Source: Geotalea daltonii FRC-32
Lineage (GTDB): Bacteria; Desulfobacterota; Desulfuromonadia; Geobacterales; Geobacteraceae
DNA: 32,000 nt
Assembly: GCF_000022265.1 (NCBI RefSeq)
Contig: NC_011979.1
Location: 2,490,001 to 2,522,000, forward strand
Direction: 5' to 3'
Positions 759 to 22,913 of this stretch are shown here, in pieces. Within the stretch, counting starts at the first letter, position 1; the number at the start of each line of letters is the position of its first letter. Position numbers and translations under genes: made by a program. The notes under the pieces were generated by a model, which worked only from the letters and a program-made list of their open reading frames with translations, had not been told where the DNA came from and ran no database searches.

Positions 759-773
759 AATCCGGAGAGGCCT

Positions 774-1205: not shown

Positions 1206-1210
1206 AATTT

Positions 1211-1243: not shown

Positions 1244-1263
1244 AACTAAGGAAGTAAACCCAA

Positions 1264-3255: not shown

Positions 3256-3270
3256 CAAGAGGTTATCTCA

Positions 3271-3453: not shown

Positions 3454-3480
3454 CAGGTTAAAACAATACAAGGAGCATGT

Positions 3481-4125: not shown

Positions 4126-4301
4126 GCGGCGTTAAAAGTCTATAAATAGCTGCCGATTTCCTGTAACTTAGTATACTTATAGATGTGTACCTGCTGAAGA
4201 GGCATGTTTTTCTTGAATAAAGGACGCAAATTTATTACCCTTCACCGGCGTTTGGACTACGGACCGGTCCACATACAAATCACGCTTTGGAGGACACATC
4301 A

Positions 4302-4772: not shown

Positions 4773-4803
4773 CAAACCCCCGCGAGAAGTCTCCATCTCA
4801 AAA

Positions 4804-4836
4804 AGCATCACAGGACCTGTGGTGCTTTTTTATTTT
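4804..4836 (+). terminator. Rho-independent terminator
   Basis: AGCATCACA pairs with TGTGGTGCT (9 bp, one G-U), with loop GGACC, followed by TTTTTTATTTT. Confidence 0.7.
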
Positions 4837-4881: not shown

Positions 4882-4938
4882 GTTTAAAAACAAGGGTGGT
4901 GCACTGCCTTTACATCTGCATGAAACAGGGTTGAAACT

Positions 4939-6765
4939 ATGTTTATGGATAACAACGTGCCGGCCTTCAATGTCAAATCCTTGCCATCCTCCTGGCCTGC
5001 ACGCCTCGCCTCGGCAAGCCGGCTATTGATGGAGATATCAGGCACCACAGAGGAAGAATTCCTGGCAACCGGGGCTAGGCTCCACGATTTTTACGACCGG
5101 GCCGGACAAATCTCACAAATGTCTTCGGAGATGGCCGGCCAGGTTTCCGGCGAAGAAATTTCCCATACCATTGGCCGCCTTCGGGAGATACTTGTCCAGA
5201 TGGACGAGTACCTGGTCCATGGGGAGAAGGAGACGGAACAGAGTTCCCAAACCTTGCGCTCAATTCTTCTTTTATTGGACAGGACTGCTGCTCCCCTTTC
5301 AGGTTTCAGGAAAATAAACAAGTCGCTGCGCATGCTCGGTATTTCAACCAAGATAGAAAGTGCACGTCTTGGGCAGAGCGCTGCAGGATTCGATACGCTG
5401 GCAAACGATGTCGCTCAGCTTTCCATTCAGGTTCTTGAAAAGGCGGGGACAATACTTGAACAAAAGGAACTGCTGACCTCTGTGATCCGCCAGACCCTGA
5501 ACCAGGTTCTTGATCTGGGCATAGAACAAAAGGGTCAGGTAAAGGGAATACTGGAAAGAACCCAGGCAAGTCTTGCTGCCCTGACTGAAGTCAATTCCCG
5601 TTGTTCCACGGCTGCATCTGCCATAGCCGAAGCTTCGGGAGTCGTGTCCCGAAACATTGGCGAAGTTGTCATGTCCATGCAGTTCCACGATATAGTCCGT
5701 CAACAGATCGAGCATGTGGCCGAGGCTCTGGATGATCTGCAGAACAGCCTGGAAAGCGAGGGAGAAGACCGGGATGGGATGGCGCCCGCTCTGGCGCAGA
5801 CTGCTGTCGGTATTTGCCAACTGCAGGCGGCACAGCTATCCCATGCCAGCGATGAACTCAATGGCGCTGTGGGGCGTATTGTCGACAACTTGCACGGCAT
5901 AGCGGCAAAGGAAGCACGCCTTTCCGAAGATACCAGTGCCATGGCAGGTGTGGCAGATCAGACGGGAAGCTCTTTCCTGACGGGACTGGAAGCCGATCTC
6001 ACCGTGGTTGGCGCCGTTCTGGACCAGAGTTCCCAGCTCAATCGTGCCCTGACCAAGGCCATGAACACCGTTGCCGAAACGGTAACGGAGATTACGGCGT
6101 TTGTCAGCGATATTGAGTTCATCGGTGAGGAAATCGAACTCATCGCCCTCAATGCACAGGTGAAAGCTGCCCTGACCGGTGACGATGGTGCCGCGCTTGG
6201 AGTCCTTGCAGAGGCTATTCAACGGCTGTCGGTGGATGCCATTGCCCAGACCTCTGCCGTTTCCAATATGTTGACCGAAGTTACCAATGCCACCGAAGGA
6301 CTCTGCAACAGCGCCAGGGCAGATGCGACCGAGCTTGACCAGGAAGTGGAAGAAATGGTCAGTTCACTGCCGGGGCTGCTTCAATCCCTGCAGAGAGTGA
6401 ATGATTCACTTAGCGAATGTCTGAAGAACATGCAAGGGGCTGTTGAAACGCTTTGTACAGATATTGACGCAGCAACCAACGGCATTACGGCCCATTTTCA
6501 GGTGACCCAGGTGATCGACCAGGTAAGGAGCGAACTGTGCACCATTATCGATGAAGCCCGTCTCATCGCTCCGTCATCTGATGCTGAAAACGGCAATCTG
6601 ATGCAGCTTGCCGACCGCTACACCATGGACAGCGAACGCAAGATCCATCATTCCATGATCAAAAAAGAAGAGGGAGCAAGTACTCAACCTGTACCTGCCG
6701 ATCCTGTCAGCGAAGTTTCTTCGCCGGCATCCGATGGGCTGGGAGATAACGTGGAGCTGTTTTAA
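4939..6765 (+). CDS. Soluble MCP-like coiled-coil protein with two degenerate MCP signalling-tip motifs
   Basis: No hydrophobic TM segment is visible. Residues 123-165 (LRMLGISTKIESARLGQSAAGFDTLANDVAQLS) and 392-434 (IELIALNAQVKAALTGDDGAALGVLAEAIQRLS) both align with the MCP hairpin tip [31 protein letters not shown] seen in the five MCPs of this window. The protein is rich in Ala, Glu, Gln and Leu in a heptad-like pattern. The start could alternatively be ATG 4945. Confidence 0.6.
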   Translation: MFMDNNVPAFNVKSLPSSWPARLASASRLLMEISGTTEEEFLATGARLHDFYDRAGQISQMSSEMAGQVSGEEISHTIGRLREILVQMDEYLVHGEKETEQSSQTLRSILLLLDRTAAPLSGFRKINKSLRMLGISTKIESARLGQSAAGFDTLANDVAQLSIQVLEKAGTILEQKELLTSVIRQTLNQVLDLGIEQKGQVKGILERTQASLAALTEVNSRCSTAASAIAEASGVVSRNIGEVVMSMQFHDIVRQQIEHVAEALDDLQNSLESEGEDRDGMAPALAQTAVGICQLQAAQLSHASDELNGAVGRIVDNLHGIAAKEARLSEDTSAMAGVADQTGSSFLTGLEADLTVVGAVLDQSSQLNRALTKAMNTVAETVTEITAFVSDIEFIGEEIELIALNAQVKAALTGDDGAALGVLAEAIQRLSVDAIAQTSAVSNMLTEVTNATEGLCNSARADATELDQEVEEMVSSLPGLLQSLQRVNDSLSECLKNMQGAVETLCTDIDAATNGITAHFQVTQVIDQVRSELCTIIDEARLIAPSSDAENGNLMQLADRYTMDSERKIHHSMIKKEEGASTQPVPADPVSEVSSPASDGLGDNVELF

Positions 6766-6798: not shown

Positions 6799-7161
6799 AT
6801 GGGTGAACTGAAGGTGACCATGGCCAAAGCGGAAGGGAACCCTGCTGCCTTGGTTGTAAAAGTCAGCGGACCGCTTACCGTCCAGAACGTTGGAGAATTG
6901 AAAACTTCTCTTTTGCAGGCATTGGAGGGAGGGGAACAGCTTTGCCTCGACCTGGCCGGGGTGACGGAGGTCGACCTGGCAGGCCTGCAACTCCTATGCT
7001 CGGCTCACCGCAGTTCCCTGCACCTTAACAAGCATCTCTGCATTACTACCGGTGATAGTGATATTATTGATACGGCGAGCATGGAAGCAGGTTTTCAGCG
7101 CCATGTGGGATGTGCCCAGGACAAGGAAAAAAGCTGCTTTTGGGTGGGAGGGAATGATTGA
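6799..7161 (+). CDS. STAS-domain protein (anti-sigma-factor-antagonist fold) lacking the phosphorylatable Ser
   Basis: LVVKVSGPLTVQNVGELKTSL...LCLDLAGVTEVDLAGLQLL has the SpoIIAA/RsbV-like topology. The DSSG position reads DLAG. An AGGAGGA RBS is present, and the stop overlaps the cheY start (TGATG). Confidence 0.75.
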   Translation: MGELKVTMAKAEGNPAALVVKVSGPLTVQNVGELKTSLLQALEGGEQLCLDLAGVTEVDLAGLQLLCSAHRSSLHLNKHLCITTGDSDIIDTASMEAGFQRHVGCAQDKEKSCFWVGGND

Positions 7162-7526
7162 TGGGAAAGATAATCATGACGGCGGATGATTCTGCCAGTG
7201 TCCGACAGATGGTCAGTTTTACCCTGAAACAGAACGGGTACGAGGTGGTGGAAGCGGTGGACGGAAAAGATGCGCTGCAGAAGCTTGGCGGACAAAAGGT
7301 CGATATGCTCATCACCGACCTGAACATGCCGAACCTGGACGGCATCGGCCTGATCAAGGGGGCGCGGGCTCTGCCTGCCTGTAAATTCATTCCTATCGTT
7401 ATGCTTACCACGGAATCCCAGGACAGCAAAAAACAGGAAGGAAAGGCCGCCGGGGCAACCGGCTGGATAGTAAAGCCTTTCAAGCCTGAACAGCTGATGG
7501 CGGTGGTGAAGAAGGTGCTCGGATGA
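7161..7526 (+). CDS. cheY: CheY-type single-domain response regulator
   Basis: Receiver signature is complete: DD (ADDSAS), phospho-acceptor D in MLITDLNMP, T in LTTES, and K in VKPF. The product is about 121 aa. Its stop overlaps the cheA start (ATGA). Confidence 0.9.
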   Translation: MGKIIMTADDSASVRQMVSFTLKQNGYEVVEAVDGKDALQKLGGQKVDMLITDLNMPNLDGIGLIKGARALPACKFIPIVMLTTESQDSKKQEGKAAGATGWIVKPFKPEQLMAVVKKVLG

Positions 7527-9628
7527 TGGACCAACATCAAGAGGCATTCAAGGAAGAGGCTTACGAGCTTCTGGCAGAGTTGGAAACGTCCCTCCTGGAG
7601 CTTGAAGAAAGGCCTGATGATGAGGAAGTGATCGGCCGGGTCTTCCGGGCCATGCATACCATCAAGGGATCGGGGGCAATGTTCGGTTTTGAAGACATTG
7701 CCGCTTTTACCCACGAAGTGGAAACGGTTTTCGATCTGGTGCGCAACGGTCTGATTCCGGTAACCAAAACACTGGTCAACGTTACCCTGGCCGCTCGCGA
7801 TCAGATCAAGGCCATGCTTGATGCTTCAACCGGGGGCGCTGTGGTTGACGTAGCCTGCACCGCAGAGATCATTGCCACCCTGAAGAGCATGCTTCCCGAA
7901 ACGGAGTCTGAAAAATCATCGGCGAACCTTCAACCGGCCGAAGAGGCAAAAGGGGGGCAGCAGGAATCGGCTGAAGTTACCTACCGGATCCGTTTCGAAC
8001 CAGACCAGGGTATTTTCATGCGAGGAACTAATCCCCTGAGCCTGGTCAAGGAATTGAGGGAACTTGGTCAGAGCCGGGTAATTGCCCAGGTGACCAACCT
8101 GCTTCCCCTGGAGGAGATGGATGCGGAGAGCTGCTATGTTTACTGGGATGTGATTTTGACCACCAACAGGGGAATTGACGCCATCAAGGATGTATTCATA
8201 TTTGTAGAGGACGATTGCGAGCTGAAGATCGAGGCCATTGACAGTGGGGCACCTTTCGCCGGCGAAGATGGCTACAAGAAACTTGGCGAAATACTGGTGG
8301 AACGGGGTGATCTGAGCTTCGAGGAGATGAAGAATATCCTGTCCCAGCAGAAACGATTTGGGGAAATTGCCATCGAGAGCGGGTTTGTGGAACCGGAAAA
8401 AATCATCTCTGCCCTTGTGGAGCAGCAGCATGTGAAGGAGGTCCGGCAGGAAAGGCAATCCCAGGAGAACGCTTCCAGCATCCGTGTTCCTGCAGAAAAA
8501 CTGGACGTTTTGGTAAACCTGGTGGGAGAACTGGTCACGGTCCAGGCTCGTCTTAGTCAGACCTCCGCCGGGCGCAGGGATGCGGAACTGATGTCCATCG
8601 CCGAAGAGGTGGAGCGTCTGACCGCAGAATTGCGGGATAACGCTCTCAACATCAGGATGCTGCCCATCGGCACCACCTTCAGTAAGTTCAAACGCCTGGT
8701 TCGCGATCTTTCCAACGAACTGGGCAAAAAGATTGAAATGGAGACTTCCGGCGCTGAGACGGAGCTGGATAAGACCGTCATAGAAAAGCTCAACGATCCC
8801 TTGGTGCACCTGATCCGCAACAGCATCGACCACGGCATAGAAATGCCCGAAGAGCGAGCGGCAGCCGGCAAGCCGGCACAGGGGACGGTGCATCTCTCCG
8901 CCGTTCATTCCGGCGACAGTGTCTTCATTACCATCAAAGACGACGGTGCAGGACTGGATAAGGAGGCCATTCGGGCCAAGGCCATAGAAAAGGGGCTTAT
9001 TCCGCCCACCACAGAACTGTCCGAAAAAGAGATTTTTGCCCAGATATTTGCTCCCGGCTTTTCCACTGCTAAAAAGATCTCCAGTGTCTCCGGGCGCGGT
9101 GTCGGAATGGATGTGGTCAAGAGGGCCATCGAAGCGTTGCGCGGCACCATCGAAATAACCAGCAAACGGGGAGAAGGCACCACCATTACCGTAAAGATAC
9201 CCCTGACCCTGGCCATCATCGAAAGCCTGCTGGTTCAGATCGGCGGCGACCGTTTCCTGCTTCCACTTTCACTGGTGGATGAATGTGTGGAATTGACCGG
9301 CAGCGACATCGAAAAGTCCCATGGAAGAAATCTGGCCACCGTTCGTGACCACATGGTGCCATACATCCCACTCCGGGAGAAGTTCCGGATCATCGGCAAT
9401 GCGCCGGAAATCCAGCAGATCGTCATCACCCAGGTCAACGGCATGCGTGTCGGCTTTGTGGTCGACCACGTCATAGGCGAGCACCAGACGGTTATCAAAT
9501 CACTGGGACGGGCTTATAAAAATGTCGAGGGCATATCGGGAGCGACGATTCTGGGTGACGGGGCGGTTGCACTGATCGTGGATATCCCGCAACTGATAAA
9601 GGAAGTGGAGGCGCAGAGCCTGCAATAG
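7523..9628 (+). CDS. cheA: Chemotaxis histidine kinase CheA with an unusual insert
   Basis: Hpt domain with HTIKGSGAMFG; P3 domain SIRVPAEKLDVLVNLVGELV; N box HLIRNSIDHGIE; G1 DDGAGLD; G2 GRGVGMDVV; and a C-terminal CheW-like P5 domain. A tandem T2SSE_N/MshEN-like motif lies at 8279-8425. Confidence 0.95.
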   Translation: MMDQHQEAFKEEAYELLAELETSLLELEERPDDEEVIGRVFRAMHTIKGSGAMFGFEDIAAFTHEVETVFDLVRNGLIPVTKTLVNVTLAARDQIKAMLDASTGGAVVDVACTAEIIATLKSMLPETESEKSSANLQPAEEAKGGQQESAEVTYRIRFEPDQGIFMRGTNPLSLVKELRELGQSRVIAQVTNLLPLEEMDAESCYVYWDVILTTNRGIDAIKDVFIFVEDDCELKIEAIDSGAPFAGEDGYKKLGEILVERGDLSFEEMKNILSQQKRFGEIAIESGFVEPEKIISALVEQQHVKEVRQERQSQENASSIRVPAEKLDVLVNLVGELVTVQARLSQTSAGRRDAELMSIAEEVERLTAELRDNALNIRMLPIGTTFSKFKRLVRDLSNELGKKIEMETSGAETELDKTVIEKLNDPLVHLIRNSIDHGIEMPEERAAAGKPAQGTVHLSAVHSGDSVFITIKDDGAGLDKEAIRAKAIEKGLIPPTTELSEKEIFAQIFAPGFSTAKKISSVSGRGVGMDVVKRAIEALRGTIEITSKRGEGTTITVKIPLTLAIIESLLVQIGGDRFLLPLSLVDECVELTGSDIEKSHGRNLATVRDHMVPYIPLREKFRIIGNAPEIQQIVITQVNGMRVGFVVDHVIGEHQTVIKSLGRAYKNVEGISGATILGDGAVALIVDIPQLIKEVEAQSLQ

Positions 9629-9680: not shown

Positions 9681-11756
9681 ATGGACATCAGCAATATGAA
9701 ACTTGCTACAAAATTGTACGGTGGTATTGGTCTGATCGTCGCAGCTCTTGTGTGTGTTGTCCTGTTCCAGGTGATAAAGATGCGGGAGCTGGGCAATGTC
9801 CAGGATCACGGAGCCGACCTGAGTGGCAACGCAGTCGCCATTCAGGAAGTGCAGGTGCGGCTTGAGGCTCTGTACGGCATAATGGCCGACGCTGTTATCA
9901 ATCGCAATCTTGCCGAATCACGCAAGGAATTCAAGGACGCTAAAGACAACCTTCTGAAAGATGTGGATAATGTGCGTAAACTGGCCGATACGGCGGAGGA
10001 AAAGCAGTTGGCTGAAGCCTTTGCCGTCAATCTCGCCAAATATCAGGACCTGTTTGAAAACAGGCAGCTGCCCGAGTTGCAGAAAGGCGCCGGCTCCAGC
10101 ACGGAAGAGCTCCGCAGGATAGACGCTCTGCTCGATGCAGCACGGGATGCCGCAATCGAGCCGTTGCATAAGATTGTCGTCTCCATCAAGAAGGAAAGCA
10201 CCAATGGTGATGAAATGTTCGATGCCTTGAGGCAGCGAACCTCCACCATATCCATTGTTTGCAGCGTAGCGGCACTGATCTTCTCGGTCATTTTCGGCTG
10301 GCTGCTGGTCAGGAACGTGCAGCGGCAGTTGGGGGGAGATCCTCTCTACGTGGTCGAGATAACACGCAAGGTCGCAGCAGGTGACCTGTCAATGTCCATA
10401 GACACCACAGGCAAGGATGAACGAAGTTTGATCTTTGCCATGGCGCAGATGATGTGTACCATAAAGGCACTGGTCGACGATACCGGCGTGCTGGTAAAGG
10501 CGGCCATCGACGGCAAGCTCGATGTAAGGGCTGACGCCGACAAGCACCATGGGGAATTCCAGAAAATAGTTCATGGAGTCAACGCGACCCTTGATGCCGT
10601 AGTAACCCCTCTGAACGTGACGGCCGATTATGTTGCCCGCATCTCAAAGGGTGACATGCCTCCTCAGATAACGGAGGAGTATAAGGGGCAGTACAATCTG
10701 ATCAAACAGAACCTTAACCTGCTGATCGATTCCACTAACCGTATAGCAGCAGCAGCCAGGGAAGTGGCAGACGGCAACCTGCAAGTTGAGCTGAAGGTTC
10801 GTTCGGAGAATGATGAGCTGATGAAAGCATTGTCAGCCATGGTGGCCAATCTTGTGGAAATCATCGGCAATGTGAAATCTGCCGCAGACAACGTTGCAGC
10901 CGGCAGCCAGCAGCTTTCCGCAGGTTCCGAGGAAATGTCCCAGGGAGCAAGCGAGCAGGCTGCCGCTGCCGAAGAAGCATCCTCTTCCATGGAAGAAATG
11001 ACCGCAAGTATCAGACAGAATGCTGACAATGCCATGCAGACCGAAAAAATCGCCCTGAAATCAACCGCTGACGCCCAGGAAGGGGGAAGGGCCGTTGATG
11101 AAACAGTCCTGGCCATGAAGGAAATAGCAAGCCGGATCACCATCATAGAAGAGATAGCCCGGCAAACGAACCTGCTTGCGTTGAACGCAGCCATTGAGGC
11201 GGCCCGTGCCGGTGAGCATGGCAAGGGATTTGCCGTTGTTGCTTCCGAAGTACGCAAGTTGGCCGAGCGTAGTCAGAAGGCAGCGGGTGAAATAAGCGAA
11301 CTTTCGGCTTCCAGTGTCGACATTGCCGAAAAAGCAGGTCAAATGCTCAGTTCCATACTTCCCGATATTCAGAAGACGGCGGAACTGGTGCAGGAGATAA
11401 ATGCATCCAGTAAAGAGCAGGATACGGGGGCAGAGCAGATAAACAAAGCAATACAGCAGCTTGATCAGGTTATACAAACCAATGCAGGTGCTTCGGAAGA
11501 GATGGCCTCCACTGCCGAAGAGCTGGCGTCCCAGGCCGAACAGCTGCAACAGGCAATCGCCTACTTTAAAATCGACAGTTCGGCAGTGGACAAACGACCG
11601 ATAACCGAAAAAAAGCCGGTGCAAAAGCAACAGGCTAAAGCTGACAAATCTCTGAAAAATGCCAAAGCCAACTGTTATTCAAAAAAGGCCGTGGGCCATG
11701 ATCTTGATATGCAGGAACCACACAATGAATTGGATTCTGATTTCGAGAAATTCTGA
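9681..11756 (+). CDS. mcp: Methyl-accepting chemotaxis protein (2 TM, periplasmic helical sensor, HAMP array, signalling domain)
   Basis: TM1 is [21 protein letters not shown] and TM2 is [25 protein letters not shown]-type AAGDLSMSI and ADGNLQVEL motifs are present. The canonical tip is [52 protein letters not shown] and [12 protein letters not shown] look like methylation-site regions. An AGGGAGG RBS is present. Confidence 0.95.
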
Positions 11757-11797
11757 GTAAGGGCAGGAGGTAACAGAGATTCTTATATTTCCAGTTA

Positions 11798-11835
11798 TAT
11801 GAGAGGCGCTGCTCATCGTTGCAGCGCCTCTCATA
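11798..11835 (+). terminator. Strong hairpin after MCP1 (probable terminator, weak T tract)
   Basis: TATGAGAGGCGCTGC (11798-11812), an 8-nt loop, then GCAGCGCCTCTCATA (11821-11835) form a perfect 15-bp stem. The downstream sequence is only moderately T-rich. Confidence 0.45.
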
Positions 11836-12139
11836 CCTCATCTTTACTTAGACCGACAGCCCCGGATAACAGCCTGAGACCCACCCCCCAATATACTCCC
11901 ATGCTTATCTTTGATGACTCCAGAAATTAGTAATTACCTACCATTTTACTATTAAAATTATTTCCACATTCTTTATAAAAAAAGTTTAGAAAAAAAAATA
12001 AATTCCGAAAAGTGACATTGTTGAAGCAGAATTTTAATCTCCTTTATTCATCCTTGATGGGGATGCTTGAAGATTAGAGCTGCTCCATCTGCAAATGAAC
12101 CATATTTCCAGGTTCAATCACATCAACGTGGAGGGGTAA

Positions 12140-14482
12140 ATGTTCAAGAACATGAAGATCGGTACCAAACTGGGAATCGGGTATGGCGTTGTTCTTTTGC
12201 TTATGGTGTTAATGGGAGTGCTGGCCTATGTGAATGTGAGCAGGTTGAGCAACAGTATCGATGAGCTTGCCGCAGACAGGTTCCCTAAGACCGTCCAGGC
12301 CAACGATGTTATCGATCAACTGAATATTGCCGCCAGAGCTACCAGAAACGCCATCCTTACCGATGACAGGTCGGAGGCAGCTAAAGAAATTGGCCGTATA
12401 CCAGATTGTTCCAGGATAATTAATGACAGGATGGAAAAACTCAAGGCTGCTATTCAAGATCCGAAAGGTAAGGAGCTCTTTTCTGCCGTTGAAGTTGGCA
12501 GGGAAAAGTACCGTGATGATCTGAAACAATTGATCGATCTCATTAATCAGGGGAAGAACGCACAGGCGAAAGCCCTTCTTTTCGGCAAGATGAGGACGAG
12601 CCAGCAGGATTATATGCAGGGCATAGCCGAGCTTATCGCCTATGAGACCCAAGAGGTGAATCGGATCGGCAAGGAGGGTATAGCACTTGGCAAGCATACC
12701 ATAACGATTATTCTGGCGTGCACGATTTTTGCTCTGTTGCTGGGCGCTACAATCGCGTTGATCATCACCCGAGCCATTACCAAACCTGTTGCAGCATGTA
12801 TTACCGCAGCCAACAAGATAGCCGGCGGCGATATGGATGTGGCTCTGGATGTGACGGCTCAGGACGAAACCGGAAAACTGCAGGCAGCCATGCAGACAAT
12901 GGTTGAAGCCATAAAAGCTTTAGTGGCAGATGCCAACATGCTTGCCCAGGCGGCACAGGAAGGCAGGCTGGCAACCCGTGCCGATGCAGCCAGGCACCAG
13001 GGAGACTACCAACGGATCGTTGCAGGAGTCAATCAGACACTGGATGCCGTTATCAACCCTCTCAACCTGGCCGCGGAATATGTGGACCTGATCAGCAAGG
13101 GGGACATCCCGACAAAGATAACCGATAACTACAACGGCGACTTCAACCAGATAAAGATCAATTTGAACAACTGCATCGACATTATGCAGAGGCTGCTGGA
13201 GCAGACCGACATCCTCATTCGCGGTGCTGCTGAGGGTGAGCTTGACAAACGTGCCAATGCGGAGCTTTTTACCGGTGGATGGAAGGACCTGGTGAGCGGT
13301 GTCAATAATATCCTCACCAATATCGTCAATCCGCTCATGCTGACAGCAGACTATGTAGACCGCATTTCCAAGGGCAACATGCCACCGCTGATAACAGCCG
13401 AATACAAGGGGCAGTACAACATTATCAAGAACAACCTGAATCTATTGGTGGATTCGACCAACGGCATCACAGCGGCAGCTAAGGAGATAGCCGGCGGCAA
13501 TCTGCAGGTGGAGCTCAAGATGCGTTCGGCCGAGGATGAACTGATGCAGGCTTTGTCCGCAATGGTGGAGAAGCTTGTAGCTATTATAAAAGAAGTGAAG
13601 TCGGCAGCGGACAACGTGGCCGGCGGTAGTATGCAATTGTCATCGGCGGCACAGGAAATGTCCCAGGGGGCAAGCGAACAGGCGGCAGCAGCCGAAGAAG
13701 CATCATCATCCATGGAGGAGATGACCTCGATTATAAGGCAGAACGCCGACAACGCACAGCAGACGGAAAAGATAGCGGTGAAATCGGCCGAGGACGCCAA
13801 GGAGGGGGGCAAGGCCGTTGCCGAGACGGTGCAGGCCATGAGGGATATCGCTGACAAGATTTCCATCATCGAGGAAATCGCCCGGCAGACCAACATGCTG
13901 GCGCTGAACGCAGCCATCGAGGCCGCACGCGCCGGAGAGCACGGCAAAGGATTTGCCGTGGTGGCAAGCGAGGTAAGGAAGCTGGCCGAGAGAAGCCAGA
14001 ACGCTGCGGGCGAAATCTCCACCCTTTCCGTTTCCAGTGTGGAGGTGGCTGAGAAGGCAGGCCAGATGCTGGCAAACATCCTTCCCGACATCCAGAAGAC
14101 TGCTGAACTGGTGCAGGAGATCAATGCCGCGAGCAGGGAACAGGATTCAGGTGCGGAGCAGATCAACAAGGCGATCCAGCAGCTTGATCAGGTCATTCAG
14201 CAGAATGCAGGAGCTTCGGAAGAGATGGCTTCAACGGCCGAAGAGCTTTCTTCCCAGGCGGAGCAACTGCAGGATAATATTTCCTTCTTCAGGATCGGTG
14301 CGACGGAGCCGGCAAAGCAGGCTAAGGACAAAAAGAAATCTGCCAATGCTACCCATGCCGCTCCTGCAATGGACAACATCAAACACGCCAAGGCCAATGG
14401 ATATCACAAGAAGGTGGTCGGGCACGATCTGGATATGAATGATGACCATGACAACCTGGACGGGGATTTTGAAAAATATTGA
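12140..14482 (+). CDS. mcp: Methyl-accepting chemotaxis protein (4-helix-bundle-type periplasmic sensor, poly-HAMP array with two 91-aa modules)
   Basis: It has two TM segments and a sensor containing [28 protein letters not shown] first HAMP domain is followed by two in-register 91-aa modules (12959-13231 and 13232-13504), a terminal HAMP domain, and a canonical MCP tip and methylation regions. Confidence 0.95.
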
Positions 14483-14552
14483 TTACAGGTAAAAGAAGAG
14501 GAGCCGGATAACTTCCGGCTCTTCGCCAAACTTGCTATGCTCAGGCAGCAAA

Positions 14553-14590
14553 GGGCTGGAACCCAATCCATCGGGTCCAGCCCTTTTTCA
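14553..14590 (+). terminator. Rho-independent terminator
   Basis: GGGCTGGAACC ... GGGTCCAGCCC forms an imperfect hairpin followed by TTTTTCATT. Confidence 0.6.
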
Positions 14591-14771
14591 TTCTCCAGCC
14601 TCCCGATTTGCTCCAGATTTCCCGCCACTTTGTACATGTTTTACTATTTGATTCTACTGTTTTGCGTGCTGAAATTAGAAAAATTTACCTTCAAGTTCTC
14701 CGTAATATTACCGAAGAATGTCGGTAGCGACGGAATTCAAGGTAAATGGCATGCAACGGCGGAGGAAAATC

Positions 14772-17700
14772 ATGTTTAAAGAAATGAAGTTGGCAACGCG
14801 TTTGGCCCTGTCTTATGGCGTGATCATCGTTTTGATGGTGATTATGGGGGGCATCTCACACCTGGGGTTGAAAAAAATCAATGATGCTGTCGAAGTTCTG
14901 GTAACGGACAAATGGCCGAAGACGGTCCAGGCCAACGCAATGATCGGTGAGGTGAATGTGGTTGCCAGGGCGTTGCGCAACATGCTCCTGACCGATGACA
15001 AAACCGTCATGCAGAAGGAACGGTCAAGGGTAATCGACGCTACTGCAGCCATCAACAAGCACTATGACGAGCTGGAAAAGACGGTCACGAGCGAGAAAGG
15101 CAAAGGGCTTCTAAATACGCTCCAGGACGCACGTGCCAAATACGAGGCGGAAATGGCCCACGTTCTTTCAGTCATAGATGCGGGAGATAAAAAAGCTGCG
15201 ACAGGCTTGCTTTTCGGCAAGTACCGTCAATTGCAGACCGCATATCTGGAGGCATCGTCAGAGATGATCAGGTACCAGAGCGGTGAAATGGACCGGACCG
15301 GCAAAGAGGCGGTGGAGACCTATGGCAGAATTTCCCTGCTTATCTACGTTCTTCTGGCTGTCTGCTTCGCCTTGGCGGGGGTGATCGGCTGGCTGGTGAC
15401 GAGAAGCATCACCAGGCCCATAGCACAGGCGGTTGACATCAGCAACCGGGTTGCCGCCGGCGACATGAGCGTGGAAATAGGCAATACGGGCGCCGATGAA
15501 ACAGGCCTGCTTTTAAACAGCATGAAGAAAATGATCGACCACATAAAAATGCTGGTGGACGATACGGATATGCTTGCCAAGGCGGCCGTGGAGGGCAAAC
15601 TTACCCTGCGCGCCGATTCCTCTAAACACGAAGGAGATTTCCGCAGGGTGGTCGAAGGGGTCAACGCGACCATTAACAGGCTGGTAGGCCTGTTGGACAG
15701 TATGCCGGCTCCGGCAATGATAATCGATAATGACTTCAATATCCTATATATGAATGAATTGGGCGCCCAGGTGGGGGGCAAGACGCAACAACAGGTGCTC
15801 GGCGCCAAATGTTACGACCATTTCAAGACGTCAGATTGTAAAACCCACAACTGTGCCTGTGGAAGGGCGCTTCAGACCGGGCAGCCGGCAAGCAGCGAGA
15901 CCGATGCCCATCCTGCAGCCGGCATCGATCTGGAAATCTCCTATACCGGGGTTCCGTTACGTAACGATTCCGGCCAGGTAGTCGGGGCTTTCGAGGTGGT
16001 GAGCGATCAAACAGCAGTCAGGAAGGCTGCCCGCCTTGCCGCAAAAATTGCCGATTACCAGAATAAGGAAACGAAAAAGCTGGTGGAAGGGCTGGGAAGG
16101 CTGGCACAGGGTGATGTGGATTTGACGGTGGTACCGGAGTCTGCCGATGGCGACACCATGGAAGTAAAAGCGACCTTCGAAAAAATTGCCGAAGCTGTGA
16201 ATAAATGCGTAGAGGTTATCAACGGCCTGAACACCGATGTAGCAATGCTTGCCCGGGCTGCCATGGAAGGACGGCTGAATATCCGTGCCGATGCCGGCAA
16301 GCACTCGGGGGCATATGGTGCCATCGTCCACGGTGTTAACGAGACCATTGGCAGACTGGTGGGCTTTCTCGACAGCATGCCGTCACCGGCCATGATTATC
16401 GATAATGATTTTACCATCCTCTATATGAATGACCTGGGGGCAAGGGTAGGTGGAAAGACCCCCGCCCAGGTGGTGGGAACCAAATGCTACGATCACTTCA
16501 AGACATCCGATTGCAAAACCGCTCAGTGTGCCTGTCAGCAGGCTATAACCGGCGGAATCGAGGCAACCAGCGAAACGGATGCCCATCCTGCCATCGGTGT
16601 CGATCTGGATATTTCCTATACCGCAGTGCCCATAAAGGATGGCCATGGCCATGTCATGGGTGCCCTGGAGGTAGTAACCGATCTGACCGCTGTGAAAAGG
16701 GCGGCAAGAGTGGCGAAAAAAATAGCCGACTTCCAGGCGGTGGAAACGAACAAGCTGGTTGATGGCCTGGAACGACTGGCGAAGGGAGAGATCAATTTCA
16801 CCATTGCCACCGCACCGGCAGATGACGACACCAAAGAGGTGAAACAGACTTTTGACGTTATCGCCCATGCAGTGAATACCACTGTTCAGGCAACTCAAAC
16901 CATTACGGAGGCTGCCAAACTCGTTGCCGGTGGGGATCTGACCGTAGAGATCAAGGAACGTTCGCCGGAAGATGAACTGATGCATGCCCTTTCGGCGATG
17001 GTTAAAATGCTGAATGAGGTGGTATCTGACGTTAAAAAAGCGGCCGACAATGTGGCGGCCGGAAGCCAGGAATTGTCTTCGGCTTCCACCGGAATGTCCC
17101 AGGGGGCCAGTGAGCAGGCTGCGGCCGCCGAAGAGGCATCTTCCTCCATGGAGGAGATGTCTTCCAATATCCGGCAGAACGCCGATAATGCCATACAGAC
17201 GGAAAAAATAGCATCCAAATCGGCCAAGGATGCCCAGGAGGGTGGGAAAGCGGTACTTGAGACCGTTGCTGCCATGAAGGACATCGCCGGCAAGATATCG
17301 ATCATCGAAGAAATAGCCCGCCAGACCAATCTCCTTGCCCTCAATGCGGCCATAGAGGCGGCCCGGGCAGGCGAACACGGCAAAGGGTTCGCAGTGGTGG
17401 CCAGCGAGGTACGCAAGCTGGCCGAGCGAAGCCAGCGAGCTGCCGCGGAAATTTCGGAGCTGTCCTCAACCAGTGTCGGGGTAGCTGAATCGGCAGGAAA
17501 CATGCTCAGTAAGATCGTTCCCGACATTCAGAAGACGGCAGAACTTGTACTGGAGATAAGCGCCAGTAGCAGAGAGCAGGATGCCGGCGCCGAGCAGATC
17601 AACAAGGCAATACAGCAACTGGATCAGGTGATTCAGCAGAATGCAGGCGCTTCCGAAGAAATGGCATCCACAGCCGAAGAGTTGGCTTCACAGGCTGAGC

Positions 17701-17921
17701 AGCTGCAAAGCACCATAGCCTTCTTCAAGATCCGTGACGCTATTGCCGTGAAACGACCGATGGAACAAAAAGTCATTCCCCAGGTGAAACAAAAGGTGCA
17801 GCCGGTCAAGGAGATAAAAAAAGCCAAGGCCAACGGTTATGGGAAAAAGGCAGTGGTCGGTCATGACCTGGATATGACGGATGGACACGACAATCTGGAC
17901 AGTATTTTCGAAAAATACTAA
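14772..17921 (+). CDS. mcp: Methyl-accepting chemotaxis protein with two cytoplasmic Cys4 PAS domains (HAMP-PAS-HAMP-PAS-HAMP-signalling)
   Basis: GGAGGA RBS at 14761-14766 favours ATG 14772 ([11 protein letters not shown], like the other MCP N-termini). It has two TM segments and a sensor paralogous to MCP2 ([27 protein letters not shown]). Two PAS-like domains each carry [17 protein letters not shown]. It has a canonical MCP tip. Confidence 0.95.
15570..16919 (+). repeat. Intragenic tandem duplication, 2 x 675 bp (225 aa: HAMP-like linker plus PAS-Cys4)
   Basis: Unit 1 starts [16 protein letters not shown] (15570) and unit 2 starts [16 protein letters not shown] (16245). The Cys clusters at 15810-15860 and 16485-16535 are exactly 675 nt apart. 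The units align along their full length without gaps. Confidence 0.85.
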
Positions 17922-17935
17922 AGGGATTTTGGTTC

Positions 17936-17978
17936 CCGGCAAGGCGCGGCGACGCAGCTCCAGCTGCCGCCTTGCCGG
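17936..17978 (+). other. GC-rich nested hairpin immediately after the MCP3 stop codon
   Basis: CCGGCAAGGCG (17936-17946) pairs with CGCCTTGCCGG (17968-17978) as a perfect 11-bp stem. It encloses a second hairpin, GCAGCT-CC-AGCTGC (17954-17967). No T tract follows. Confidence 0.5.
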
Positions 17979-18011
17979 AGGAGCAACACAGCCGGGGCCA
18001 AGGTGAAGCGA

Positions 18012-18041
18012 AAGTGCCTGGTTCAAAAGAACCAGGCACTT
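18012..18041 (+). repeat. Copy 1 of a 30-bp hairpin direct repeat (terminator-like stem without T tract)
   Basis: AAGTGCCTGGTTC-AAAA-GAACCAGGCACTT has a 13-bp perfect stem. It is identical to 18193-18222. Confidence 0.85.
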
Positions 18042-18045
18042 GAGT

Positions 18046-18161
18046 CTGATGAAAAAGCCCTATCTGCGGCGTTGCCCTTACCAGTCGTCGCTGCGGCGTA
18101 CCGTTAAGTACGCCTCACTCCTCAGGTTTCGGGCGCCTTGCACCTAGGGCTTTTTGATCAG
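18046..18161. repeat. Structured intergenic repeat element, copy A (MITE/REP-like, non-coding)
   Basis: Terminal inverted repeats CTGATGAAAAAGCCCTA (18046-18062) and TAGGGCTTTTTGATCAG (18145-18161) match at 16 of 17 positions. The central hairpin is GGCGTAC-CGTTAA-GTACGCC. Core blocks TCTGCGGCGTTGCC, TCACTCCTC and CCTTGCA are shared with the element at 25210-25368. Confidence 0.6.
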
Positions 18162-18192
18162 CCTTACATATTGTGACTTCGTCAGCAATCTG

Positions 18193-18230
18193 AAGTGCCT
18201 GGTTCAAAAGAACCAGGCACTTTTATATTT
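18193..18230 (+). terminator. Copy 2 of the 30-bp hairpin, here followed by a T tract (functional-looking terminator)
   Basis: It has the same 13-bp stem and AAAA loop as 18012-18041, but is followed by TTTATATTT. Confidence 0.7.
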
Positions 18231-18233
18231 AGC

Positions 18234-18261
18234 TTTACCTTTCATGTTAATTGAATATAAT
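18234..18261 (+). promoter_or_regulatory. Sigma70-type promoter candidate for the PAS histidine kinase
   Basis: TTTACC (18234-18239), a 16-nt spacer, then a perfect TATAAT (18256-18261). Confidence 0.45.
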
Positions 18262-18295
18262 AAACTACTTCAAACTTTATCCCGAAAGGATGATG

Positions 18296-19777
18296 ATGCC
18301 GAACGGCTCCAAGGATTATAATATCCTGGTTGATGGGGATGGCAGGGGTGCCCAGCTGTTGGGGCTGGTCTGGACTGTAGTGATTGCGGTCATGGCTATC
18401 GCACTTCTCACCGACATTGAGGAGATGGTCGGTTTGATCAATACTTTTGGCCTCGTAATGTTATGGATAGTGGGGATTGGCGGGATCTGTCTGGGAAGCA
18501 GAAAACTGCGGCAAAGCGAAGAGAGATTATACTCTGCTGAACAGGCTCTGTGGAAATCAAAGCAGAATCTTGAACTAAAAGTCATGGAACGAACTGCGGA
18601 ACTGGAAAGGGCCAATCTGCGGCTCAAAGATGAGGTCGAAGAGCGTTTGCGTGCAGAAACCGCTTTACGAGCATCGGAGATGAAATATCGCATCGTAGCC
18701 GAGAATACCTATGGCTGGGAGTTCTGGCTGGATGTGCAGGGCCGGTTCATCTATTCGTCACCCGCCTGCAAGGAGATCACCGGTCATGGAGCCGAGGAGT
18801 TCGTGACGGATCATGAACTTTTTCGCCGCATTATTTTTCACGAGGATCTGAGGTGTTATGAGACTCACAGAAAAGAGGTTGAAGAGGGGCGCAAAACCGA
18901 TTCAGTTGCTTTTCGCATCGTCAGGCCGGACGGCAGTATGCGCTGGATCGGCCATGTCTGCCAGCCTGCCTACGATGACGAGGGCAATTTCATCGGTACC
19001 CGGGGGAGCAACCGTGATATCAGTGGCCGCAAACGGACAGAAGACGAGATACGCATGCTGAACGAAGAACTGGAGGCCAGGGTAAGAAAAAGGACTGCCC
19101 AACTTGAGGCTTCCAACCGGGAACTGGAGGGATTTTGTTATGCCATATCCCATGACCTTCGAGCTCCGCTGACGCGTCTTGAAGGATACAGCCGGGCATT
19201 GCTCGAAGACTGCGGTGATACCCTCGACAACCAGGGGCGCACCTATGCGGAAAGCATTGAGAGGAACAGCAAACAGCTGAAAGAGGTCATAGATATACTT
19301 CTCGAATTGACAATGCTGACCCGTAGCGACCTGATGGTGGAGGAGATAAATCTGAGCGAGATGTGTCATGAAATTATGAACGACTTGCAAACTGCGTATG
19401 TCGGACGCAACATCGAGTTGTTGGTGGCGCCGATGGTCATGGCCAGAGGAGACAGAAACCTGCTGATGGTGGCCCTTAGAAATCTCCTGGATAATGCCTG
19501 CAAGTATACGGCGAAGCATCAACAGGCGACTATCGAATTCGGCGTGATGGAGCAGAAAACACGAAAGGTCTTTTTCATCCGCGATGATGGTGCAGGCTTC
19601 GATATGAAATTCGCCAAAAAGATGTTCAAGCCGTTCGAACGTATTCACCGCTCGGAAGAATTTTCCGGTGTGGGCATCGGGCTTGCCACCGTGCAGAGGA
19701 TAATTCAGCGCCATGGCGGGCGGATCTGGGCAGAGGGAGAGATTGAGAAAGGAGCGACATTCTTTTTCAGCCTTTAA
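18296..19777 (+). CDS. Membrane-anchored PAS sensor histidine kinase (no adjacent cognate response regulator)
   Basis: It has two TM segments (GLVWTVVIAVMAIALL and FGLVMLWIVGIGGICLG), a coiled coil, and a PAS domain (YRIVAENTYGWEFWLDVQGRFIYSSPACKEITGH). The HisKA H-box is FCYAISHDLRAPL, and the HATPase domain includes DDGAGFD and GVGIGLATVQRI. The track start TTG 18251 lies inside the predicted promoter. ATGs occur at 18290, 18293 and 18296 after AAAGGA, and the exact start is uncertain. Confidence 0.85.
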   Translation: MPNGSKDYNILVDGDGRGAQLLGLVWTVVIAVMAIALLTDIEEMVGLINTFGLVMLWIVGIGGICLGSRKLRQSEERLYSAEQALWKSKQNLELKVMERTAELERANLRLKDEVEERLRAETALRASEMKYRIVAENTYGWEFWLDVQGRFIYSSPACKEITGHGAEEFVTDHELFRRIIFHEDLRCYETHRKEVEEGRKTDSVAFRIVRPDGSMRWIGHVCQPAYDDEGNFIGTRGSNRDISGRKRTEDEIRMLNEELEARVRKRTAQLEASNRELEGFCYAISHDLRAPLTRLEGYSRALLEDCGDTLDNQGRTYAESIERNSKQLKEVIDILLELTMLTRSDLMVEEINLSEMCHEIMNDLQTAYVGRNIELLVAPMVMARGDRNLLMVALRNLLDNACKYTAKHQQATIEFGVMEQKTRKVFFIRDDGAGFDMKFAKKMFKPFERIHRSEEFSGVGIGLATVQRIIQRHGGRIWAEGEIEKGATFFFSL

Positions 19778-19822
19778 CGGGTCATCGGAGTTTCCGGATG
19801 GCCACTAAATAGATTCTTGACC

Positions 19823-19849
19823 AAGCCATGGGTTTCCATGGCTTTTTTT
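19823..19849 (+). terminator. Rho-independent terminator
   Basis: AAGCCATGG-GTTT-CCATGGCTT forms a 9-bp stem followed by TTTTTG. Confidence 0.75.
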
Positions 19850-19892
19850 GTGTCTTTTTTAGGTTCATGTTCATAGTAAATGGAAAAAACCT

Positions 19893-19919
19893 TTAAGAAA
19901 TAAGGTTTCTTTCCGATAA
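19893..19919 (+). promoter_or_regulatory. Sigma28 (FliA)-like promoter candidate upstream of cheW-1
   Basis: TCCGATAA (19912-19919) matches GCCGATAA at 7 of 8 positions. The -35 is imperfect: TTAA with a 15-nt spacer, or TAAG with a 14-nt spacer. Confidence 0.35.
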
Positions 19920-20001
19920 GGCTTACTAGTAATTCAGAAAATAGCTGGTCTTATAAAATTTTACTACGCAAGACATCAAAATGCGGAAAGGAATAAAAAC
20001 A

Positions 20002-20508
20002 ATGGAACAGGCAACCGATCAGACTGGAGCGACTCAATATCTCACTTTTACCCTCGATGACGAAGTTTTTGCCCTGGATATCGGCAAGGTACGGGAGGTG
20101 CTGGACTACACAACGGTGACCAAGGTTCCCCAGACCCCTGATTTCATGCGCGGGGTGATTAATCTGCGCGGCAATGTGGTGCCGGTGGTGGACATGCGGC
20201 TGAAATTCGCCATCAATGCCACGGAGAATACCGTCAACACCTGCATCATCATTGTCGAAGTGGCTGTGGACGGCGAGGTCACTATTCTTGGCGCCATGGC
20301 CGATTCGGTACAGGAAGTGCTGGACCTGGAACCGGATCAGATCGAGCCGCCTCCCAGGATCGGCACAAAAATGAGGACCGATTTCATCAGTGGCATGGGA
20401 AAACGGGATGAGCAGTTCATCATGATACTGGACATCGACAGGATTTTTTCGGGAGAGGAACTGGCTGCGGTGCAGGGAGAAAACATCGCTGCCGCAGCTA
20501 ATGAATAG
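20002..20508 (+). CDS. cheW: CheW adaptor protein, copy 1
   Basis: [24 protein letters not shown]...[17 protein letters not shown] is a canonical CheW core. ATG 20002 (MEQATDQ) parallels the start of copy 2 (MEGSQIE). The track start at 19981 is also possible. Confidence 0.9.
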   Translation: MEQATDQTGATQYLTFTLDDEVFALDIGKVREVLDYTTVTKVPQTPDFMRGVINLRGNVVPVVDMRLKFAINATENTVNTCIIIVEVAVDGEVTILGAMADSVQEVLDLEPDQIEPPPRIGTKMRTDFISGMGKRDEQFIMILDIDRIFSGEELAAVQGENIAAAANE

Positions 20509-20544
20509 GTCATTGAATTGCGTGGCTGAAAAAGGAGGTATGTA

Positions 20545-22233: not shown

Positions 22234-22254
22234 ATCTCGCTGTTGTAGTCACCG

Positions 22255-22282
22255 AAGCCGCGCTTTGCGCGGCTTTTTTTTT
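22255..22282 (+). terminator. Rho-independent terminator
   Basis: AAGCCGCGC-TTT-GCGCGGCTT is followed by a run of nine T residues. Confidence 0.85.
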
Positions 22283-22298
22283 AAATAGTTAAACCATC

Positions 22299-22325
22299 TA
22301 AAGAAAAATATGCGTCAGACGATAA
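22299..22325 (+). promoter_or_regulatory. Sigma28 (FliA)-type promoter upstream of cheW-2
   Basis: TAAA (22299-22302), an exact 15-nt spacer, then GACGATAA (22318-22325, 7 of 8 matches to GCCGATAA). It lies inside the over-long track ORF that starts at 22310. Confidence 0.55.
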
Positions 22326-22369
22326 GTAATCATGCTGCTTTGAACAGATTTGTCGAAAAGGGGGAGTCT

Positions 22370-22879
22370 ATGGAAGGATCTCAGATTGAAGGTGCAACAC
22401 AATACCTTACTTTTACCCTGGATGAAGAAGTCTTCGCCCTGGATATCGGCAAGGTGCGGGAGGTGCTGGATTACACGACGGTGACCAAGGTGCCCCAGAC
22501 CCCCGATTTCATGCGAGGTGTCATCAACCTGCGCGGCAATGTGGTGCCGGTGGTGGACATGCGGCTGAAATTCGCCATCGATGCCACGGAGAATACCGTC
22601 AATACCTGTATCATCATCGTCGAGGTGGATGTGGACGGTGAGATCACGATCCTCGGTGCCATGGCCGATTCGGTGCAGGAGGTGCTGGATCTGGAGCCTG
22701 ATCAGATCGAGCCGCCACCGCGAATCGGCGCCAGGATGAGGACCGATTTCATCCGCGGCATGGGCAAAAGGGATGAGCAATTCATCATGATCCTGGATAT
22801 CGACAGGATCTTTTCCGGTGAAGAACTGGCTGCGGTGCAGGCCATTGATGACGATATCTCACAGGTTTCCAACGGCTGA
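22370..22879 (+). CDS. cheW: CheW adaptor protein, copy 2
   Basis: It is about 90 percent identical by eye at nucleotide level to copy 1 across the core, including a 51-nt perfect tract (20164-20214 = 22529-22579). GGGGAG RBS precedes ATG 22370, which lies downstream of the predicted promoter. Confidence 0.9.
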
Positions 22880-22913
22880 CTTTTACCAGTTGATAGTCAA
22901 AAGGAGGATAGCA

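Follow-up and report, generated by a model that had tools for sequence, protein, structure and literature searches.

A soluble protein with two chemoreceptor hairpins

The window analysed here is a stretch of 32,000 nt from Geotalea daltonii FRC-32 (NC_011979.1, positions 2,490,001-2,522,000), and all coordinates below refer to it. It holds a chemotaxis (che) gene cluster, at the head of which lies a gene for a protein of 608 amino acids (aa) that resembles methyl-accepting chemotaxis proteins (MCPs). We refer to this double-hairpin, MCP-like protein as DH. DH is made up of two MCP signalling hairpins, tandem copies of ancient origin, and its structural interpretation as a single-chain pseudo-dimer is well supported. 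At the protein level, it is 98% identical to its counterpart in Geotalea toluenoxydans (locus L001). The features of DH are given below with the evidence for each, which comes from AlphaFold2 models (secondary structure assigned by DSSP), mean-field direct coupling analysis (DCA) and residue conservation, counted over 334 DH-family sequences.

4939..6765, + strand: DH open reading frame (ORF), ATG start, 608 aa, soluble, double-hairpin MCP-like protein
4993..5382, + strand: helix A, N-arm of hairpin 1, residues 19-148 (AlphaFold2 DSSP; DCA contacts A-B and A-D)
5044..5073, + strand: T-E-[DE]-E-F-L-A-x-G on helix A, with E38, F41, L42 and G45 at 96-98% (family conservation)
5326..5424, + strand: tip 1, residues 130-162, LRMLGISTKIESARLGQSAAGFDTLANDVAQLS (kept across phyla; alignment with the TM14 tip; DCA turn at about residue 147)
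5389..5760, + strand: helix B, C-arm of hairpin 1, residues 151-274 (AlphaFold2; DCA)
5665..5718, + strand: invariant V-V-x-S-M-Q-F-H-D-I-[VT]-R-Q-Q-I-E-H-V on helix B, residues 243-260 (conservation; weak Pfam CheZ matches)
5761..5781, + strand: inter-hairpin loop, residues 275-281, rich in Gly/Asp/Pro (alignment; AlphaFold2)
5782..6177, + strand: helix C, N-arm of hairpin 2, residues 282-413, opening with the conserved C-E-L-Q-x-A-Q-L
6112..6240, + strand: tip 2, residues 392-434, IEFIGEEIELIALNAQVKAALTGDDGAALGVLAEAIQRLS (conservation; TM1143 alignment; DCA turn at about residue 416)
6181..6567, + strand: helix D, C-arm of hairpin 2, residues 415-543 (AlphaFold2; DCA)
6598..6648, + strand: short helices with the invariant R-Y-T-M-x-S-E-R-x-x-H (conservation; AlphaFold2)
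6661..6738, + strand: variable linker, about residues 575-600, Pro/Ala/Ser/acidic, predicted to be disordered (pLDDT below 50; no sequence conservation)
6739..6762, + strand: conserved C-terminal peptide L-G-D-N-V-E-L-F (family alignment)

As the first-pass annotation of this DNA had stated, DH is soluble and has no transmembrane segment, the highest Kyte-Doolittle mean over 19 residues being 1.23. The two tip peptides that it had picked out lie at residues 132-162 (within nt 5305-5433) and 401-431 (within nt 6112-6240), and the two further motifs that it had noted behind the tips are found at residues 247-260 (MQFHDIVRQQIEHV, nt 5677-5718) and from residue 519 onward (HFQVTQ..., beginning at nt 6493). 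The chain terminates in DNVELF.

Two MCP-like regions are detected in DH. Pfam MCPsignal (PF00015) matches the whole protein in two stretches (E 9.9e-14). On its own, the C half reaches 43 bits (E 4.4e-11) against a gathering cut-off of 34.6, and the N half stays below this cut-off with 22.3 bits (E 1.3e-4). The MCP identity of the N half is settled by family profiles. When 24 N halves drawn from several phyla were made into a profile, it matched eight MCPs of solved structure, with E from 1.7e-13 to 8e-9. The best match is T. maritima TM14 (3g67; E 1.7e-13), with the tips in register and the DH segment LRMLGISTKIESARLG..GF..LA.DV..LS paired with the TM14 tip; TM1143 (2ch7) is matched at E 6e-9. 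In a profile of the whole family, the C half (residues 285-565) aligns to the full cytoplasmic domain of TM1143 (E 1e-15). Against the signalling domain of the MCP encoded in the operon itself, each of the two hairpins likewise aligns with its tip in register.

The N half and the C half are also related. Comparison of the N half with the C half by blastp aligns 217 aa with one gap (E 3e-9). The Smith-Waterman score of half against half is 100, compared with 45.3 +/- 7.6 for 300 shuffles (z 7.2) and 70 for a reversed-sequence control. An hhalign comparison of the N-half and C-half profiles gives a probability of 84% and E 8.8e-7 over 249 columns. Together with the matches to solved MCPs, this internal repeat signal bears out the tandem duplication of an MCP hairpin that had been suggested for DH.

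Topology of the double hairpin

For DCA, 334 DH homologues were aligned (effective number 224), and the top 0.5% of couplings between residues at least 12 positions apart were tallied by antidiagonal. Just three antidiagonal bands stand out. The first (i+j 288-301, z 5.6) corresponds to hairpin 1 with a turn at about residue 147, and the second (i+j 827-847, z 3.7 for the 7-wide bin at 827) to hairpin 2 with a turn at about residue 416. The third and strongest band (i+j 554-581, z 7.4 and 3.6) comprises 49 pairs between helices A and D and 32 pairs between helices B and C. Its centre at about 563 equals 147 + 416, as it should for hairpins that are packed alongside each other, tip next to tip. 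The A-D/B-C ladder is continuous, running from 29-528 to 143-419 and then from 148-412 to 271-311, and thus spans the full length of the bundle. Couplings are enriched on a parallel diagonal, j-i 264-277, too (z 3.6). When mean scores are used as the statistic, the same three bands emerge and no further ones.

AlphaFold2, supplied with 113 sequences, predicts a confident four-helix monomer (pLDDT 87.1, pTM 0.66, 400 residues above 90). Its helices of about 125-132 residues span positions 19-148, 151-274, 282 to about 413 and about 415 to 543, with two short helices and then a disordered tail beyond them. The two hairpins are joined by a short loop at 275-281. An earlier AlphaFold model from 35 sequences is similar, and pLDDT dips at both tips across the models. 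In the later model, the helices are interrupted at the tip-1 turn, in the 275-281 loop and before the tail. Within the DH family, the junction between helices B and C is a Gly/Asp/Pro loop that is prone to indels and varies in length by up to about 25 residues, which suits a turn and not a continuous helix.

The DSSP strings of the two models differ at the tips: the first shows no break at tip 1, and the second breaks at 149-150 and has none at tip 2. A hairpin turn at residue 116, derived from the first of these strings, was discarded, as DCA contains no ladder near i+j 232 and a clear one at 288-301. Since both turns are supported by DCA and DSSP misses one of them in each model, a string of helix and non-helix states cannot locate such tight U-turns. 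Foldseek root mean square deviations against full-length MCPs range from 75 to 120 Å and are not interpretable.

The covariation ladder, of which the A-D/B-C band is the strongest element, and the AlphaFold2 model thus agree with the earlier proposal that two hairpins in one chain pack side by side with their tips together, and the fold-back pseudo-dimer reading of DH is supported. The helix neighbour pattern is the same as that of CD1/CD2 and CD1'/CD2' in canonical MCP homodimers such as Tsr, TM1143 and TM14, and each half of DH is a homologous antiparallel coiled-coil hairpin with a conserved tip. In contrast to these receptors, the DH 'dimer' is a single chain, so that nothing forces its two tips to stay alike, and they have indeed diverged. 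DH further differs from them in lacking a HAMP domain, transmembrane segments and a ligand-binding domain, and in having almost no methylation consensus.

A soluble chain with two MCP signalling domains has a precedent. DosM (VC1403, WP_001185438.1) of Vibrio cholerae and its F9 homologues are soluble, contain two tandem signalling domains and usually lack a sensor domain; DosM is reported to form an extended rod with a tip at each end that spans two baseplates (PMC9321776, PMC7534058). The F9 clusters have the order DosM-CheW3-CheB-CheR-CheY-CheA and encode a triple CheW (PMC9321776). DH shares with DosM the two signalling domains in one soluble chain and the absence of a sensor domain. The first-pass annotation, which knew of no described receptor with this architecture, therefore went too far as regards the domain content, but DH does differ from DosM in topology, gene order and CheW type. 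Its coevolution places tip 1 against tip 2, not at opposite ends. A parallel rod of the DosM type, with hairpin 1 paired to hairpin 1' of a second chain, was rejected since DCA puts hairpin 1 against hairpin 2. The proximity of the two tips likewise does not match a DosM-style rod with a tip at each end, while it is compatible with an antiparallel swapped rod: in covariation alone, an intramolecular bundle and an antiparallel domain-swapped dimer give the same contacts. DH is also set apart, by the description of DosM, through its SxQFHDxxRQ and YTMxxERxxH motifs and its LGDNVELF tail, which are not reported for DosM. Our literature searches returned no paper on a fold-back pseudo-dimer MCP or on the D/Q motif, and no tandem or pseudo-dimer MCP besides DosM.

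The che cluster and the DH family

The genes around DH form a che cluster, listed here from its upstream border onward.

4800..4830, + strand: terminator-like hairpin ending the cytochrome P460 gene (14-bp stem, then a T run)
6799..7161, + strand: STAS protein in a CheS-like position (Pfam STAS_2, E 4e-13)
7158..7526, + strand: CheY-type single-domain response regulator (Pfam Response_reg, E 1e-25)
7523..9628, + strand: CheA histidine kinase (Hpt, H-kinase_dim, HATPase_c and CheW domains)
9681..25124, + strand: five transmembrane MCPs with xFEK[FY] at the C-terminus, plus one PAS histidine kinase and two genes for single-domain CheW (19981-20508; 22310-22879)
25445-26311, + strand: CheR
26336-27412, + strand: CheB

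The strong terminator directly upstream makes DH the first gene of its transcription unit, and the genes for STAS, CheY and CheA follow, in agreement with the operon that had been annotated. The MCPs of the cluster end in DFEKF, DFEKY, IFEKY or EFEKF. Geobacter genomes are known to carry a che cluster classed as 'Type 2 E. coli-like', with 34H receptors and xF/YxxF/Y pentapeptides (PMC2577667), and judged by its gene content and MCP tails the cluster in the window is of this type. It encodes no CheZ, CheC or CheX.

Neither a sigma-70-like nor a sigma-54 promoter was found upstream of the DH gene. By eye only, a weak sigma-28-like TAAA-N17-GCCTTTAC can be made out at 4885-4913; sigma-28 control has been proposed for Geobacter che genes (PMC2577667). 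Further upstream lies an iron-related block (633-4772) with a Fur family regulator, FeoB, a DtxR-type regulator with a FeoA domain and the cytochrome P460. Within the cluster, the PAS-HisKA-HATPase kinase (18251-19777) sits among the MCP genes. An EAL-HDOD protein (27466-28704) comes after CheB and hints at a link of the che cluster to cyclic di-GMP signalling. The 'linkers' that precede the MCP tails are not variable: about 15 residues ahead of xFEK[FY], they share K-A-N-G-Y-x-K-K-x-V-G-H-D-L-D-M (11620-11756, 14350-14482, 17790-17921, 22100-22233 and 24990-25124). Such conservation is unusual for a tether that is supposed to be unstructured. In the G. toluenoxydans draft (L001, 14743-21825), the MCP genes downstream of CheA are split into many short ORF fragments, which suggests frameshift errors in the assembly.

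The DH family is large. A HMMER scan of 1.84 billion representative sequences found 773 clusters (50% identity) at E <= 1e-30, nearly all of them about 590-650 residues long and matched end to end. Longer members carry no extra fused domains and no known sensor domain. A genome scan returned 78 loci, with identities down to 28%, in Geobacterales, Syntrophorhabdus, Syntrophales, Nitrospirota, Ignavibacteria/Melioribacter, Brocadia, Omnitrophota and Desulfobacterales; tblastn of DH against a plasmid collection gave no matches. In its sources, DH is annotated merely as 'methyl-accepting chemotaxis protein' or 'chemotaxis protein'.

In most of the 78 loci, DH stands beside STAS-CheY-CheA, the context for which the first-pass annotation had suggested a survey. 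Most often, the genes run DH-STAS-CheY-CheA and continue with CheR-CheB or with genes for MCPs and CheW. The STAS gene adjoins the DH gene in most loci, and a CheY gene is adjacent or one gene off in nearly all loci that extend far enough. In the Syntrophorhabdus type (L052, L064, L050, L053 and related loci), the order is CheY-DH-CheY-CheR-CheB, with STAS-CheA-MCP-CheW directly upstream. Two metagenome-assembled genomes hold paralogous DH pairs, each copy in its own che cluster (L025 and L026 in JBGPID01; L036 and L062 in BP8.bin69).

A similar gene position is occupied by IcpA of S. meliloti and MCP514 (Atu0514) of A. fabrum, soluble MCPs whose genes come first, before cheS(STAS)-cheY1-cheA (PMC8466855, PMC12654446). 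DH resembles them in its position ahead of the same STAS-CheY-CheA triad, in being soluble and in having no recognised ligand-binding domain. In contrast to DH, the two are described with a single signalling domain; their N-terminal region of about 200 residues could be a degenerate hairpin. The alpha-proteobacterial STAS protein CheS, encoded in the same position as the STAS gene here, promotes the turnover of phosphorylated CheY1 at CheA (PMC12654446).

Conserved sites and the proposed function of DH

Apart from the tips and the tail, every conserved segment of DH sits at the tip-distal end of the bundle. Here, an invariant polar cluster is made up of T-E-x-E-F-L on helix A, S-x-Q-F-H-D-x-x-R-Q-Q-x-E-H on helix B, C-E-L-Q-x-A-Q-L on helix C and the Y-T-M-x-x-E-R-x-x-H mini-helix. 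Within hairpin 1, the T-E-x-E-F-L-A-x-G segment of helix A faces the HDxxxQ motif of helix B. In this motif, Q248, D251 and Q255 are present in 334/334 sequences and R254 in 333/334, followed by H259 (98%), E258 (97%), H250 (96%) and S246 (94%). D251 and Q255, together with Q248, thus vary less than the histidines of the motif. At position 250, 11 sequences have Gln or Asn instead of His; with Ser and Arg counted in, the replacements amount to 13/334. F249 is variable and is Ala in the Geomonas clade. Elsewhere, Y561, T562, M563, E566, R567 and H570 are conserved at 96-99% and C293 at 86%, and C222 is Ser in a third of the sequences. The heptad register around D251/Q255 is ambiguous from sequence alone.

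The first-pass annotation had regarded the motifs behind the two tips as related. They do occupy equivalent positions, but only the first is invariant, and the second (HFQVTQ...) is poorly conserved except for H519 (85%). As the counterpart of the helix B motif in hairpin 2 is not conserved, there is one such site per chain. Each chain also has one tail. The helix B motif (5665-5718) aligns weakly (21.6 bits) to the C-arm (about 11400-11470) of the MCP at 9681-11756, in a region that holds a methylation-consensus site, and may be derived from this conserved part of the MCP C-arm.

In Tsr, the residues that make contacts within the receptor trimer and to CheA and CheW are F373, I377, L380, N381, E385, R388 and F396. 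Tip 1 of DH retains the equivalents of E385, R388 and F396 and has Ser at the position of N381. Tip 2 retains LIALNA, with the equivalents of L380 and N381, and now has K, L and L at the positions of E385, R388 and F396. Neither tip contains the full Tsr set, and the two are complementary. Both are conserved across phyla.

The C-terminal peptide is invariant and the linker before it is variable in all DH homologues (N604 99%, V605 84%, E606 92%, L607 94%, F608 99%), which fits the resemblance to a tether that had been noted for DH. In two distant members the peptide is doubled (L067, about 11700-11860; L074, about 2260-2386), the tails reading ...LGDGVELF...LGDNVELF and ...GGVELF...LGANIELF. 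Doubling is expected if the peptide is a tether with adjustable copy number.

We propose that DH is a single-chain mimic of a chemoreceptor dimer that acts as an array-docked phosphatase or sink for phosphorylated CheY (CheY-P). We put the probability of this reading at roughly 0.4; whereas the structure is computed, the function is our best guess, reasoned from the conserved features. The comparison is with CheZ, a four-helix bundle of two hairpins with the signature A-x-x-F-Q-D-x-x-x-Q, a flexible linker, a C-terminal CheY-binding helix and a localisation at receptor clusters (PMC7750401). DH resembles it at the level of motif and layout: its bundle is likewise built from two helical hairpins, S-x-Q-F-H-D-x-x-R-Q (S246...Q255) fits a common [A/S]-x-x-F-[Q/H]-D-x-x-x-Q in which the first Gln of CheZ is His in 96% of DH sequences, and a flexible linker leads to a short conserved C-terminal peptide. 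Geobacter genomes are described as lacking cheZ (PMC2577667). We favour a CheZ-like role because D251 and Q255 are invariant across several phyla, and because of the signature, the layout, the neighbouring CheY and the absence of CheZ. Pfam CheZ also matches weakly over precisely the motif region (residues 205-271 aligned to profile positions 83-149; E 6e-4 with the N half, below the cut-off), and such weak matches occur in 8/35 DH-family members. The tail of E. coli CheZ, ...DDLLDSLGF, can be likened to ...DDGLGDNVELF of DH.

In the proposed mechanism, the pseudo-dimeric tip would dock DH into the array that the transmembrane MCPs of the operon form with CheA and CheW. At the tip-distal end, D251 and Q255 would act like D143 and Q147 of CheZ and speed the hydrolysis of CheY-P, while the tethered C-terminal peptide would catch CheY in the manner of its CheZ counterpart. 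The STAS protein, in the position of CheS, could assist at CheA. CheY-P bound at the tip-distal end may in addition act back on the bundle and, through it, on CheA. The DH gene would thereby supply the che cluster of CheZ-less organisms with its missing array-localised CheY-P phosphatase or sink.

Several observations weigh against this proposal. Pfam CheZ scores of 13.8-20.2 bits are not significant against a cut-off of 30.7, NCBIfam Phos_CheZ reaches 11 bits against a cut-off of 350, a PDB search with a motif-region profile yields no CheZ structure at a threshold as lax as E 10, and two fold searches return no CheZ. Homology to CheZ was therefore rejected, and we keep the likeness as an analogy of motif and architecture. 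The DH bundle is also about twice as long as that of CheZ, is derived from an MCP and has one site per bundle instead of two, and its phosphatase activity is putative. F249 of the motif varies across the family. The helix B motif could instead be a derived MCP C-arm, bind a ligand or metal, or have to do with methylation. The DH tail, N-x-E-x-F, is as close to NWETF as to the CheZ tail, the clusters also contain genes for CheR and CheB, and docking into the array is suggested only by the conservation of the tips.

Some of these points would suit the main alternative, a genuine cytoplasmic chemoreceptor, which we consider possible if rather doubtful. Here, the pseudo-dimer would join trimers of dimers and control CheA, and the tip-distal cluster would sense a ligand, a metal or redox state. 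The tail would be a variant tether for CheR and CheB, and E38-E40 an adaptation site. Both DH tips are as conserved as those of working MCPs, CheR and CheB are at hand, and the tip-distal invariant set includes H250, H259, H570, E258 and E566, as well as C293. In Agrobacterium, the soluble MCP514, first in its che operon, is polar via its hairpin and affects chemotaxis generally (PMC8466855). The top invariant residues of DH are Asp and Gln, however, not His or Cys, and H250 and C222 vary. No known sensor domain is present, the longer family members included.

Like NWETF-type pentapeptide receptors, DH has an N-x-E-x-F peptide that ends in Phe and follows a disordered linker. Pentapeptides that bind CheR and CheB are defined by a C-terminal xZxxZ, with Z being F, W or Y (PMC7390727). 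NVELF departs from this rule, with Val (84%) or Ile at position 2 in place of the defining aromatic residue and F (99%) at position 5, whereas all five co-encoded MCPs conform to it with their canonical xFEK[FY]. For methylation sites, we applied the consensus [ASTG][ASTG]xx[EQ][EQ]xx[ASTG][ASTG]. DH contains one match (GTTEEEFLAT, residues 35-44), compared with 3-5 in each neighbouring MCP, and in the family consensus T-E-D-E the central pair is usually D-E, not [EQ][EQ]. The phosphatase and receptor readings are not mutually exclusive, as the binding of CheY-P could feed back on CheA.

We think it unlikely that DH is a structural receptor akin to DosM, in which an antiparallel, domain-swapped pair (hairpin 1 with hairpin 2' of the other chain) with a pseudo-dimeric tip at each end would bridge two CheA/CheW baseplates and stabilise a double-layer array in the cytoplasm. 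The domain content is the same (two signalling domains, no transmembrane segment, no sensor), A-D/B-C contacts within and between chains look alike in covariation, and hairpin 2 aligns almost gap-free to a 44H receptor, the class of DosM. The gene neighbourhood points elsewhere: the F9 order DosM-W3-B-R-Y-A occurs in 0/78 loci, and the published F9 table does not contain Geobacter. In place of a triple CheW, the DH cluster in the window has two single-domain CheW genes, alongside MCPs with xFEK[FY] tails and the order DH-STAS-CheY-CheA. The B-C junction is a variable Gly/Pro/Asp loop and no continuous helix, the monomer is modelled with confidence (pTM 0.66), and the invariant D/Q motif and the tail would be left unexplained.

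It is less probable still that H250 is a phospho-accepting histidine and DH a phosphate sink or relay for CheY-P. The H-D-x-x-x-Q sequence is a box of HisKA_3 DHp domains, and in DH it is likewise carried by one helix of a four-helix bundle (H250 96%, D251 and Q255 100%); the adjacent STAS-CheY-CheA genes match the alpha-proteobacterial phosphate-sink arrangement. No similarity to HisKA, HisKA_3, DHp or Hpt was found in Pfam or the PDB, though, and the replacement of H250 in 13/334 sequences, in which D and Q never change, fits a phosphatase motif better than an obligatory phospho-acceptor.

Finally, the sub-threshold Pfam score of the N half (22.3 against 34.6 bits) might mean that this 'hairpin' is a coiled coil with an MCP-like composition only, and DH an ordinary soluble MCP with an unrelated helical domain, but this is refuted by the in-register matches of the N-half profile to eight solved MCPs, by the shuffle test (z 7.2) and the hhalign result over 249 columns, and by a DCA hairpin ladder centred on the predicted tip.

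Taken together, the DH family is a real and well-conserved kind of double-signalling-domain MCP, with a topology that differs from DosM and is supported computationally, and with a putative catalytic or binding site. This cautions against classing every MCP with two signalling domains as DosM-like. In a receptor homodimer, one tip points to the trimer axis while the second, identical one engages CheA-P5 or CheW, roles that mutations can hardly separate. A natural single-chain pseudo-dimer with diverged, complementary tips would be a ready-made system for assigning them. It is conceivable, if by no means probable, that DH represents an unrecognised and widespread class of chemotaxis protein, combining a pseudo-dimer with array-plugging tips, a CheZ-like CheY-P phosphatase or sensor end (convergent or very distantly related) and a tethered peptide that captures CheY. 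If the D/Q site is a phosphatase, it would explain how the CheY-P signal is terminated in 'E. coli-like' clusters that have no CheZ, and it would mean that the MCP fold can be converted into an enzyme scaffold. A receptor-shaped phosphatase would then end the signal, and possibly exert product feedback on CheA, in the numerous DH-STAS-CheY-CheA clusters that have no CheZ.

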